Positions 41,159 through 49,215 of a DNA stretch of 64,000 nt are shown here, one piece after another. Under the pieces are notes generated by a model that saw nothing but the letters and a program-made list of their open reading frames with translations, had not been told where the DNA came from and did not search any database. The position numbers were made by a program, and so were the translations under genes. The stretch comes from Bacillus sp. (in: firmicutes) (GTDB taxonomy: Bacteria; Bacillota; Bacilli; Bacillales; Bacillaceae_G): contig JBHGXS010000090.1 of assembly GCA_041920565.1 (NCBI GenBank), positions 100,049-164,048 of the forward strand. The letters run 5' to 3'. Every line of letters starts with the position of its first letter. The first letter of the stretch is position 1.

Positions 41159-41518
41159 ATGGTAATTGTATATGATTCCATGACAGGGAATGTGCAGCGC
41201 TTTATAAACAAGCTTGATATGCCCGCTATTCAATTGAAAGAAGACATGCAGATGAACGAAGAGTATGTCCTTGTCACATATACGACCGGATTCGGAGCTG
41301 TACCAGAACGCGTGAACAAGTTTTTGCAACGCAATCATCCGTATTTAAAAGGCGTATCCGCCAGCGGCAACCGCAACTGGGGAGATATGTTCGGCGCAAG
41401 TGCAGACAAAATTTCCAACCAATATAAAGTACCGGTCTTATCCAAGTTTGAAATGGCAGGAACAAAGAAAGATGTAGAAATTTTTAAAGAAAGGGTGCGT
41501 GCGATTGCGACACATTGA
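41159..41518 (+). CDS. nrdI: Class Ib RNR flavodoxin
   Basis: YDSMTGNV, TYTTGFG, SGNRNWG, KFEMAGT. Confidence 0.96.
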   Translation: MVIVYDSMTGNVQRFINKLDMPAIQLKEDMQMNEEYVLVTYTTGFGAVPERVNKFLQRNHPYLKGVSASGNRNWGDMFGASADKISNQYKVPVLSKFEMAGTKKDVEIFKERVRAIATH

Positions 41519-44500
41519 GTTAAACAACGAAATAACGCAGATGACAAACGGTTTCTATCAACTCGATAAGGACAAAGAAGCGCTTCAAGAGTTTATGAAA
41601 GAGGCTGAAGAAAAAACTGTACAGTTTCATAGTGTACGAGAGCGAATGGCCTATATGCTGGAGCACGACTATTATTACAACGTGTTTGACGAGTACTCTT
41701 TGGAGGAAATTGAAGAAGTGTACGACATTACATACGGGGCAAAATTCCAATTCCAATCCTATATGGCAGCTTCCAAGTTTTATAAGGACTATGCTCTGAA
41801 AACGAATGACCAGAAGCAGTATTTGGAAAGCTATCCAGACCGTGTAGCTATCGTATCGCTCTATTTAGGAAGAGGAAATGCAGAAAAAGCAAAGCAATTT
41901 GCACGCATGATCATCAAACAAAACTATCAACCTGCGACACCTACCTTTTTGAATGCCGGCAGAAGCAGACGAGGAGAAATGGTGTCTTGTTTCTTGTTAG
42001 AGATGGACGACAGCTTAAACTCTATCGGGTTTAATATTAATACGGCGATGCAGCTATCAAAAATCGGCGGGGGTGTAGCTTTAAATTTGAGCAAACTGCG
42101 CGCGCGCGGAGAGCAAATTAAAGGAATTGAAAATGCGGCGAGCGGTGTTGTGCCGGTTATGAAGCTTCTTGAAGATTCTTTCTCTTATGCGAATCAACTG
42201 GGCCAAAGAAAAGGTGCAGGCGCTGTATATTTGAATATTTTCCACTGGGATATTGTAGAATTCTTGGATTAAGAGGTAGTCCCTCTGCACAGAGATGTGC
42301 ATGAGAAAACCTTGTGAACCCAAGCTAACGGGGTGTCGCAATAGCGGCTAACGGTATCAGTTGAATAAGGAGCAAACGCTCGCGAAGAAGCTGACTAAGA
42401 GAGCCTACGGTCCGGAATACGGATAGCAGGTAATACCGTGCCAAGCTTGTCAATTTTGGCAAGAAGGTGTAGAGACTATCGAAAGCACGTCAAAAGACGT
42501 AAGCGAGTAGAGTAGGCTGGAGATAGGCGCCAGTCGAAGTGCAAGGCAACCCTTTAGCGGTTGAAGATATAGTCCAACCTTTGCAGAAATGTGAAGAAAC
42601 GTTGACCAAAAAAATAAATGCCGACGAGAAGAGCCGTATTCAATCTCTTTCCATCGGTTTGATTGTACCGAGCAAATTCTTTGAATTGGCAGAGAAAGAT
42701 GAACCGCTTTATGTATTTGCTCCATACACAGTATATAAAGAATACGGACAGCATTTGGATGATTTAGACATCGATACAATGTACGAAGAATTAGTTAACA
42801 ATCCGAATGTGAAAAAGAAAAAGCTGGATTTAAGCGCACGTGACATGCTCATTAAAATCTCAATGATTCAGTTAGAATCCGGTTATCCATATTTGATGTT
42901 TAAGACAAATGCAAATGAGCAGCATCCGTTAAAGGATATTGGAACTGTGAAGATGTCGAATTTGTGTTAATGATTAGCACCTTCCGTCAGTAATGGCGGT
43001 CGAAAACTCTGCTAAACGGGGAAAGCCTCTTTGAGGTAACCTGCCGTGCTAAAGCTTATCTTAACTTGGTCTTTGCGTCAGTTATTATTCAAACTTCTTA
43101 AAAGGAGTAGGAACTATGCAAACTGAGAACGTCCCTTATGGTTTTATTTATCAAACTGTAAATAAAATTAATGGGATGAAATATGTCGGAGCAAGTCTTT
43201 TCCGGAATATAAAAGGATGGTTCCTAAAAATAACATTACAAAGAAACAAAATAATCCAACATGTAATGTAGAAATAGATGGAATCGTGTATAAGAGTATT
43301 AAAGAGGCTGCTATCTCCTTCAATACTTCGGATGCAACGATAATTAGACGATTGGACTCCTTAAAATTTCCAAACTATAAGAGACTTTCTCAGAGGTTAA
43401 GATAAGTAAATGCCTAACGACTATCGAAATCACACCATAATGGTGGAAGAGAGTAGAGTAGACCACAAGCGATTGGTGGTCGAAAAGCAGAGCATCCTAC
43501 CAGGTAAGGCTGGGGATGATGATATAGTCTATCCTATACAGCGATGTATAGCTGCACGTAACGGTGCGGGTTAGAAGTAGCGACTCTAACTGAATATAAG
43601 AGACGGAAATCTTCCAGTTACAAGAAACATCTGAAATCAACGATTATGGCACAGATGATGTGATCCGCCGCGATATTAACTGCAACCTAGGATCACTGAA
43701 CATCGTAAATGTGATGGAAAATAAAGAGATTCGTGAAGCAGTTCATGCCGGAATGGAAGCTTTAACTGCAGTTTCCGATATGACTGTCATCCAAAATGCG
43801 CCGACAGTGAAAAAGGCAAACGAAGAGCTTCACTCCGTCGGTCTCGGTGCAATGAACTGTGTGACGCGTTCCTGCGTAGCGTAGAGTGGCTAACACTACT
43901 ACGGTAAAGCGTAGGCACTAATCTGAATAGATTAGGAGAACTGTTATTCCGATGAATCAAATGAGAGGGTAACGCCTCGAAGGGTTCACTCGATACCGAA
44001 CTGCGTTAAAATTTGTAAGAATCGAAACGTGGTAAGCTCGGCGTAAAAGTAGGAGAACCTGCCGTAACAGGTAAAGCTGACGAAAGACTTTCAGAGGTGA
44101 AAGTTGCAGGTCATGCTGCGAGAGTCAAATGGATATGGTGAGAATGCTCGATGACACGCGGCATATGTTAAGAGCTGACGAACCGCCGAATGTACGGGTC
44201 TAAATCGCGAACATGTAGAAATGCATGTACTGCTCAATGCAGGGTCAGTGTGGGTGAGTAAGAATGGTTCATATGAAAATCCATAATGTGTTACAGGCAC
44301 ATTCAAGCTGACAGGCTCAAAGGTGGCACCTAAGTCCATTCAATGATAGGAATAACGGAACGCGGAAAGCTGTCAACGTGGAGAGCTTACACTCAGTGAA
44401 GCGTTTCTGAGGAAAGCAATAATGACAATAGTTATTGTATAACTCAGATTTATGACAGTGAGGGTGGTGGCACAGTACCGATGAAGCGTGTAATGAACGT

Positions 44501-47654: not shown

Positions 47655-47686
47655 GAATGTTGTTGAGATAGATAAGGGGGAATTTG

Positions 47687-49215
47687 ATGAAAGCCGTAAA
47701 CTGGAATAAAAAAGAAGATGATTACAGTCTAGTGTTTTGGAAGCAGAATCTGTCCCAATTTTGGACAGAGGAGGAAATTGCGGTTTCCTCTGATAAAAAT
47801 ACATGGGTGCAGCTTTCAAAAGAAGAACAAACTGCCTATAAACGTGTACTTGGCGGATTGACGCTGCTTGATACAAAGCAAGGAGGAGAGGGAATGCCTC
47901 TCATCCTTGTTCATTTGGATAATTTGCAAGCGAAAAGCGTACTTGCTTTTATGGGCGCCATGGAAGAAGTACATGCGAAAAGCTACAGCCATATTTTTAC
48001 GACATTGGCAACGGAAGAAGAAATTGATGAAATTTTTGACTGGGTTGATAAGCACCCGCTGCTTGAAAAAAAATCAAAAATGATTTCCAATTACTATCGT
48101 CGCTTGCTCAAACCGGAAGTCAGCAAACGTGAATTGTACATGGCGATGGTGGCAAGCGTGTTTTTAGAAAGCTATTTGTTCTACAGCGGCTTTTTCTATC
48201 CGCTTTATTTGGCGGGGCAAGGCAAGCTGACAGCAAGCGGTGAAATTATTAATCTCATTATCCGTAAACTTTTTGCGGCCCTGATCTGGAAACAGGCAGT
48301 GGAAAAATCCCTCTAATTGCTGGGACACCCTTCAAGGGCAATCAGCAGCGAAGCCTCTTTGGAGGAACGTTCAACGACTAGGCGAAAGCCGTAGGGCACA
48401 AGCGATTGGTGCTCGAAACGGGGGACATCCTGAATCAGGATGGTGAGATAGTCTGTACTTTACTAGCAATAGTAAGCGGCTCTAAGAGCGGTATAGGCGT
48501 AGCGAACCTATATGAACACATTAGGATGAGAGTATTCACGGCGTATTTGTCGGTTTGTTAGCCCAAGAGATTTTCAGAAAGATGTCTGAAGAAGAACAGC
48601 AGGAAGTAAAAGCGGAAACGCTTGAGTTATTGTTGGATCTTTATGAAAATGAAAAAGCCTATACAGAGGAACTTTATTCTGCAATCGGCCTTGTAGACGA
48701 AGTAAACAAATTCGTTCGCTACAATGCCAATAAAGGATTAATGAATCTCGGATTTGATCCATATTTTGAAGATGAAGAAATCAATCCGATTGTTTCAAAT
48801 GGTCTTCGTACAGAAACAAAAAACCACGATTTCTTTTCCGTTCTAACTTGAGCGGCTTTAGATAGGAATATCTATCGAACACTCCGTGAATTCAGGAAAA
48901 GCCTAAGTTGACTTATACGTCAATATGGCAATCTCTGAGCGAAGCCTCTATGAGGAACGTGCAACGACTATCGAAAGCGCAAATTTGCACTGCGAATTTG
49001 GAAGTGAGTAGAGTACACTCAAGCGAGTGGAAGCGCGGAGCATCCAGACCGGATGATGATATAGTCTACTCCCTATTTTGGAAACATAGGGCTGGGTTCG
49101 TCCCGCCGTAAGAGTAGCGACCTTACGGGAATGTAAAGGTAAAGGAAATGGTTATGTAAAAGCGACGAATGTAGAAAAACTGACAGATGAAGACTTTATG
49201 TTCGATTTTGAATAA
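47687..49215 (+). CDS. nrdF: Class Ib RNR beta subunit in 3 exons: join(47687..48265,48525..48841,49140..49215), 323 aa
   Basis: Junctions restore NLIIR|DESIHG and HDFFS-V(GT|T)-[14 protein letters not shown] and [10 protein letters not shown] motifs; 972 nt, in frame. Confidence 0.95.
48266..48524 (+). ncRNA. Group I intron 1 of nrdF (259 nt, no ORF)
   Basis: Exon CCGU / IGS GCGG; P aattgctggga, Q aatcagcag, R caacgacta 48372, S gagatagtct 48445; terminal G. Confidence 0.93.
48842..49139 (+). ncRNA. Group I intron 2 of nrdF (298 nt, no ORF)
   Basis: Exon CCGU / IGS GCGG; P aattcagga, Q tctgagc, R caacgacta 48962, S gatgatatagtct 49055; terminal G. Confidence 0.92.

Follow-up and report, generated by a model that had tools for sequence, protein, structure and literature searches.

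We describe here the ribonucleotide reductase (RNR) operon of a Bacillus sp. genome (GenBank assembly GCA_041920565.1), which lies on contig JBHGXS010000090.1 within a stretch of 64,000 nucleotides (positions 100,049 to 164,048 of the forward strand) that we call the window and whose numbering is used throughout. We hold with good confidence that this locus is a chromosomal nrdI-nrdE-nrdF operon for a class Ib RNR, in which three group I introns and one group II intron interrupt nrdE and two further group I introns interrupt nrdF. Contigs assembled from metatranscriptomes show exact excision of all five group I introns, and splicing of the group II intron is predicted only. Group I introns are rare in the protein-coding genes of bacterial chromosomes.

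The exons were mapped by tblastn of the intronless NrdE and NrdF proteins of a genome of the same genus (G001, locus L021) onto the window, where NrdE aligned as five colinear pieces and NrdF as three. Exact boundaries were set on the sequence by the U...G rule for group I introns (U closing the exon, G closing the intron) and the GUGUG...AC rule for group II introns. The resulting introns measure 335, 635, 2,779, 316, 259 and 298 nucleotides (nt), summing to 4,622 nt against 3,057 nt of exon. Once joined, the exons of nrdE encode 694 amino acids (aa) and those of nrdF 323 aa, both stop-free and equal in length to the G001 proteins, to which they are 91.7% (NrdE) and 93.8% (NrdF) identical. 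The operon is laid out as follows.

41159..41518, + strand: nrdI, flavodoxin-like NrdI (PF07972, E 1e-34), first gene of the operon, its 3' end overlapping the start of nrdE; collinear with locus L029
41505..42269, + strand: nrdE exon 1 (tblastn to G001 NrdE residues 1-264; PF02867 positions 1-97; PDB 6cgl)
42270..42604, + strand: E-i1, group I intron, 335 nt, no open reading frame (RF00028; RNA joint 42269>42605; homologues 82-84% identical at the same site in relatives)
42605..42967, + strand: nrdE exon 2, ending in the active-site NLC motif (tblastn, PF02867)
42968..43602, + strand: E-i2, group I intron, 635 nt, with the decayed remnant of a GIY-YIG-type homing endonuclease (RF00028; RNA joint 42967>43603; circle 43602>42969)
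43603..43858, + strand: nrdE exon 3 (tblastn, PF02867)
43859..46637, + strand: E-i3, group II intron, 2,779 nt, GUGUG...AC (RF02004, RF00029)
46638..46955, + strand: nrdE exon 4 (tblastn, PF02867)
46956..47271, + strand: E-i4, group I intron, 316 nt, no open reading frame (RF00028; RNA joint 46955>47272; homologues 80-90% identical in L063, L075 and L113)
47272..47654, + strand: nrdE exon 5, with a YY pair and a C-terminal CxxC, stop included (tblastn, PF02867)
47687..48265, + strand: nrdF exon 1, start ATG 47687 or TTG 47684 (PF00268 positions 2-190; tblastn)
48266..48524, + strand: F-i1, group I intron, 259 nt (RF00028; RNA joint 48265>48525)
48525..48841, + strand: nrdF exon 2 (PF00268; tblastn)
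48842..49139, + strand: F-i2, group I intron, 298 nt (RF00028; RNA joint 48841>49140; circle 49139>48843; homologue 83.6% identical in L030/L022)
49140..49215, + strand: nrdF exon 3, stop included (tblastn, 100% identity to G001 NrdF residues 304-327)

The assignment to class Ib is based on full-length, colinear large and small subunits together with a NrdI partner (PF07972). The profile PF02867 is covered colinearly by the five nrdE exons (positions 1-97, 97-213, 213-292, 291-382 and 383-523) and PF00268 by nrdF exons (positions 2-190 and 189-281), and NrdE exon 1 matches PDB 6cgl, a chain named ribonucleoside-diphosphate reductase subunit alpha, with an E-value of 9e-93. NLCTEI, the YY pair and the C-terminal CVAC of NrdE and the EEVH...Y and DESIH motifs of NrdF are all legible in the exon translations; we take these motifs to have catalytic and radical-transfer roles. 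The nrdE start is ambiguous between TTG 41505, chosen in the original prediction, and GTG 41499. The locus is collinear over about 28.6 kb with L029 (Bacillus sp. 165), and within nrdEF this collinearity is broken only at the six introns, so the locus is the core chromosomal operon and not a prophage copy.

All five group I introns are found by the Rfam group I model RF00028, whose gathering score is 50 bits; F-i1 (84.1 bits), F-i2 (77.0 bits) and E-i4 (52.0 bits) score above it. At each of the five boundaries T is the last exon base and G the last intron base, the same bases as in the RNA joints, and the P7 strands GACUA ... UAGUC, which presumably mark the conserved catalytic core, were found in all five RF00028 alignments. 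The U.G pair of the intron element P1 was read for E-i1 from the Rfam alignment and for E-i2 by eye from the sequence. E-i1, E-i4, F-i1 and F-i2 have no open reading frame (ORF). The endonuclease remnant of E-i2 consists of two short frames at 43116-43405, one of which weakly matches the I-TevI DNA-binding domain (PF20987, E 1.4e-4); only its C-terminal 71 aa match the ORF of the homologous L044 intron, which runs to at least 198 codons from stop to stop. Every group I intron of the window has site-specific homologues in relatives, 70-90% identical over full or partial length. Junctions of E-i1 and E-i2 shifted by +1, giving Ser as in G001, were considered and rejected: the RNA joints leave no ambiguity, a shift would put A at the intron end, and Thr after both sites is the common residue in relatives, intron-bearing or not. 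F-i1 lies directly before DESIH, the second ExxH metal-ligand motif of NrdF.

The locus is contained in 12 public sequencing runs, eight of which were compared as contigs: four of RNA (X4, X8, X11 and X12) and four of DNA (X3, X6, X7 and X9). X4 and X8 are metatranscriptomes of one study (P2); X6, X7 and X9 come from a second study (P3) and X3 from a third (P1). The exon joints of E-i1 (42269>42605), E-i2 (42967>43603) and F-i2 (48841>49140) are present in RNA contigs of both X4 and X8, that of E-i4 (46955>47272) in X4, and that of F-i1 (48265>48525) in X8 only. A 1,879-nt X4 contig carries nrdE exons 1, 2 and 3 ligated and differs from the window at 5 positions, and one X8 contig carries all three nrdF exons ligated. 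We also observed circular intron RNA, recognized by joints that run from the end of an intron back to its start: 43602>42969 (E-i2) and 49139>48843 (F-i2) in X4, and 42604>42290 (E-i1) in one X12 contig of depth 2. The circles of E-i2 and F-i2 are short of the first intron base only, and that of E-i1 is short of the first 20 bases. No exon-exon joint occurs in the contigs of the DNA runs X3, X6, X7 and X9; X6, X7 and X9 share the variants of the RNA strain (for example at 43740, 44127, 46255 and 46296) and cross the intron-exon junctions. The five group I introns are thus spliced in vivo at the predicted bases, because RNA contigs join the exons there and DNA runs with the same variants do not.

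Alternatively, the joined contigs might derive from a co-occurring intronless strain, as RNA or as contaminating DNA, without any splicing. The RNA libraries are community samples that possibly contain DNA, and intronless relatives such as G001 do exist. This explanation is nonetheless very improbable, as the intron circles cannot derive from DNA, the DNA runs with the same variants hold the introns and no joined form, and the spliced contig has only 5 differences from the window in 1,879 nt while the nearest intronless relative has about 85% DNA identity. Still less credible is an assembly artefact in which introns of different strains or organisms were stitched into one contig. The window's assembly, in 143 contigs and 84.67% complete, would leave room for such an error. 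Against it, contigs of DNA run X3 tile the locus across the exon-intron boundaries, one of them (46884-49300) spanning E-i4 through nrdF with both nrdF introns; the X3 sample is not marked as a possible source of the assembly, but its study is shared with two possible-source runs, so that X3 is not fully independent. RNA contigs moreover connect successive elements, and the runs of the second DNA study agree.

These results bear out the original prediction, made from the sequence without database searches, as to the identity, number, classes and boundaries of the six introns, the 694-aa and 323-aa products and the balance of 4,622 nt of intron to 3,057 nt of exon, all confirmed by tblastn, sequence and Rfam. 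The covariance-model check that it had proposed detected all six introns, two of the group I introns below the gathering score. Its predicted splice junctions stood for the five group I introns, whose joints are exact in RNA contigs; ligation across the group II intron was not seen in those contigs.

The group II intron E-i3 is the largest of the six and is single-copy in the assembly. It has the ends of a group II intron, GUGUG at 43859 and AC at 46636-46637, with domains 5-6 matched, and is organized as follows.

43936-44132, + strand: domains 1-4 core (RF02004)
44684-45988, + strand: reverse transcriptase (RT) ORF, 434 aa (PF00078, E 3.5e-39)
45988-46287, + strand: middle piece of the intron protein, 99 aa, in a different frame
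46277-46549, + strand: HNH piece, 90 aa (PF01844, E 6.4e-5)
46553-46637, + strand: domains 5-6 (RF00029)

Both Rfam models are matched at full length, RF02004 over model positions 1-201 of 201 with 137.8 bits (gathering score 34.5) and RF00029 over positions 1-77 of 77 with 61.2 bits (gathering score 40), and on this basis the ribozyme looks intact. A 7-bp pairing between exon-binding site 1 (EBS1) and intron-binding site 1 (IBS1), GGTTCAT with ATGAACT, covaries with the introns of L109 (genome G003) and L110 (genome G015), which have their EBS1 at the same aligned position, matching their own, different 5' exons. Within the intron, a Pfam search of the RT piece returned RVT_1 alone and no maturase domain, a result that is uninformative since the protein of an intact relative likewise gives RVT_1 alone. 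The RT piece keeps about 97 residues past the RT motifs and may still act as a maturase. With its DNA-binding and HNH portions no longer in frame, E-i3 has probably lost its mobility.

A direct duplication of 67 nt lies in E-i3 shortly upstream of the RT ORF, and its 31-nt repeat ends are found at 44565-44595 and 44632-44662. One copy is missing in the RNA runs X4 and X11 and in the DNA runs X7 and X9, so the duplication is polymorphic between populations. The joint 44564>44632, considered as a splicing event, was rejected: it is present in DNA too and is a strain indel of the duplication.

Several observations weigh against the operon as we read it. In E-i3, no EBS2-IBS2 pairing was found at the position homologous to the EBS2 of its relatives, and nearby there are only weak pairings with G.U. 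The intron's protein is split by two compensating frameshifts into three frames, where L109 and L110 have a single frame of 617 codons; no indel appears at the frameshift places in the contigs, RNA or DNA, from other studies, and the frame breaks are therefore real. The joint between exons 3 and 4 (43858>46638) is absent from the contigs of the four RNA runs, which drop rare forms and cannot prove absence, and an X4 contig is unspliced from inside E-i3 across the 3' splice site into exon 4. Among the group I introns, E-i1 (36.0 bits, E 3.4e-6) and E-i2 (30.6 bits, E 1.4e-4) score below the RF00028 gathering score, and the splicing of F-i1 is seen in a single X8 contig of depth 6, with the intron kept in a long X4 contig. 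More generally, the runs were used as contigs, which are unable to show rare forms or amounts, and contig depth was not used to rank expression; nor did a transcriptionally silent stretch serve as a DNA control for the RNA libraries. Finally, the ratio of nonsynonymous to synonymous divergence (dN/dS) from G001, 0.037 for nrdE and 0.034 for nrdF, speaks for intact coding sequences, but at a distance that is saturated (dS 1.1-1.4) and so blind to a recent loss of function. The X4 contig that joins exons 1, 2 and 3 stops exactly at 43858, positions 43859-43937 are uncovered, and the next contig begins at 43938; this break may be a graph fork or a simplification by the assembler, and it is evidence neither way.

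As an alternative to a working operon, nrdE could in effect be a dead or silenced gene. With a broken maturase/endonuclease gene and a match at EBS1 only, the group II intron would then not splice usefully, no full-length NrdE would be made, the cell would live on the anaerobic enzyme NrdDG, and the group I ribozymes would go on splicing a transcript that is no longer needed. Besides the unseen exon 3-exon 4 joint, the contig left unspliced at the 3' splice site and the intron protein in three frames, this account can draw on an intact anaerobic nrdD (652 aa) and nrdG on another contig of the assembly, and on the labels of the runs that hold the locus, which are oil sands and sludge metagenomes. 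We nevertheless regard it as unlikely. The 3,057 nt of exon are free of stops and frameshifts, with products of the same lengths as the intronless orthologue, and the RT part and both ribozyme models are intact. Comparison of the two populations gives 3 differences in the 3,057 nt of exon and 9 in the 2,779 nt of the group II intron, although these numbers are small. The missing joint does not show absence, given how contigs lose rare forms, and a related group II intron sits in the sole nrdF of a relative whose genome is 100% complete.

Profile searches of the 84.67%-complete assembly returned no second PF02867 or PF00268 locus, so that the split operon is the sole class I/II RNR locus found in it. 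An intron-split locus is likewise the sole PF02867 locus in two other genomes, both 100% complete: G011, whose nrdF holds a group II intron, and G106, which has five group I introns. It had been proposed from the sequence that, if this is the only aerobic RNR, dNTP (deoxyribonucleoside triphosphate) supply depends on six splicing events. The condition agrees with what the incomplete assembly contains; the consequence is qualified by a group II splicing event that was not seen in the RNA contigs and by the intact nrdDG.

Returning to the reading of a functional operon, we picture each group I intron folding and leaving the pre-mRNA by guanosine-initiated, two-step transesterification. As four of these introns have no endonuclease gene and the fifth has a decayed remnant, they are probably passengers without mobility that were inherited, or gained at site-specific hot spots. 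Retromobility probably brought the group II intron to a site matching its EBS1; its intact-looking ribozyme would carry out the splicing, with the RT/maturase fragment of 434 aa as a helper. Should all six steps work, the cell would rely on them for aerobic dNTP synthesis and on nrdDG where oxygen is absent. The only aerobic dNTP supply of a free-living bacterium would then hang on six ribozyme reactions of two classes in one transcript, one of them by a group II intron with a fragmented maturase gene, in a lineage (Ectobacillus and its neighbours) where nrdEF is an intron sink with at least nine sites. To this full picture we give slightly less than an even chance.

We surveyed relatives in two ways. 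The first covered 80 named loci from Ectobacillus, the B. cereus group, Gottfriedia, Niallia and Chengkuizengella; insertions per nrdEF numbered none in 30 loci, one in 39, two in seven and three in four. The second was a census of the family, in which 104 of 105 genomes were scored: nrdE is in five pieces in the window only, in four in G106 and in at most three in the rest, and nrdF is in three pieces in the window, G023 and G106. An order-level census of 401 genomes was left out as unable to count introns; it scored only two candidates per genome, and the window's own genome (G000) showed 2 pieces in it against a real 5. Six introns is the top count among the 104 family genomes and 80 named loci, and among these only the window has all six introns or an intron at its group II site of nrdE. 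Besides the window, an intron at F303 turned up only in G106 and in L030, a locus covering the same contig stretch as L022 of G023. Across the named loci and the window, the insertion sites in nrdEF number at least nine (E200, E242, E264, E385, E470, about E576-588, F33, F190, F197 and F303), with E470 in the window only.

Two relatives come closest to the window. G106, a genome of a sister genus with 10% contamination, carries five group I introns in its sole nrdEF (L113, about 5.5 kb), three in nrdE and two in nrdF, which score 87.3, 65.9, 61.7, 40.9 and 40.0 bits. Four of them occupy the window sites E264, about E577, F197 and F303, with 75-90% identity; unlike the window, G106 has no group II intron and has an intron at E200 in place of E385. 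In Ectobacillus ponti (L069) a group I intron occupies E264, and a group II intron (2,689 nt, L069 12500-15210) matches the Rfam models that found E-i3; the latter lies at another site, in nrdF near codon 33, and has an intact ORF of 628 codons. We found no paper in the open-access literature on the intron-split nrdEF of G106 or of Ectobacillus. The view that the locus is exceptional, put forward from the sequence, thus holds for the number of introns, and is tempered by the five introns of G106 and by the pairing of both intron classes in E. ponti.

The nrdEF genes of the B. cereus group are the best-studied example of group I introns in bacterial chromosomal protein genes and were described with one intron in each gene. 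The window locus is a real, extreme variant of that known theme, and the evidence that five of its six introns splice in nature is unusually direct. In the available portions of the papers cited here, every B. cereus-group strain has a single nrdE intron (Tourasse & Kolsto 2008, PMC2504315) and there are at most two introns per nrdIEF operon (Nord & Sjoberg 2007, PMC2248736). Splicing in vivo was reported for introns of B. anthracis nrdE and B. thuringiensis nrdF, and four nrdE sites and one nrdF site were described for the group (nrdE IVS2-IVS5 and nrdF IVS6) in the same portions of these two papers (PMC2248736, PMC2504315); our site names were not matched to this published numbering. The introns described there resemble those of the window in lying in the same operon, being of the same element type, having an in-frame stop at or soon after the intron start and often having lost their endonuclease genes, and the window sites E264, E385 and F197 are also occupied, with recognisable sequence homology, in named B. 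cereus-group loci. In the window, by contrast, nrdE has four introns and nrdF two; one of the six is a group II intron, and another occupies a second nrdF site (F303), as against the single nrdE intron and at most two per operon described in those portions.

Parallels also exist outside this group, as far as the available text of the sources goes. A chromosomal RNR gene of a cyanobacterium (cited or tabulated in PMC4143802) is like the window in holding many self-splicing elements, with RNA evidence of intron splicing; it is class II, however, and has group II introns and inteins only, without group I introns. RNR genes of phages and prophages, such as bnrdE and bnrdF of SPbeta and nrdE of Staphylococcus phage Twort (PMC2504315 Table 3; references in PMC3984707), resemble the window in that group I introns interrupt nrdE or nrdF at conserved catalytic motifs; GIY-YIG or HNH endonucleases accompany some of these introns. 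These copies are phage-borne and have one or two introns per gene, in contrast to the core chromosomal operon of the window. For a group II intron in nrdE we found nothing comparable in the open-access literature, and the portions of PMC3984707 and PMC4853749 available do not report one.

The locus shows that six self-splicing introns of two classes need not keep an essential operon from being transcribed, and that in natural communities no fewer than five of the six are spliced correctly. It offers a natural system for asking how far coupled transcription and translation tolerate the serial folding of ribozymes, whether a single slow intron limits dNTP supply, and why RNR genes are intron hot spots. 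Standard annotation would likely label both nrdE and nrdF as pseudogenes and so misjudge the aerobic capacity of the organism.

Two minor observations on the contigs may be added. An X4 RNA contig spanning 43938-48841 has E-i4 and F-i2 removed and F-i1 and the 3' junction of the group II intron retained, which suggests partly spliced transcripts or else an assembly path that mixes forms. At window positions 48362-48402, RNA and DNA contigs match about 30 bases of the F-i1 core and then diverge; these loose ends look like group I introns of other organisms that share the common conserved core.

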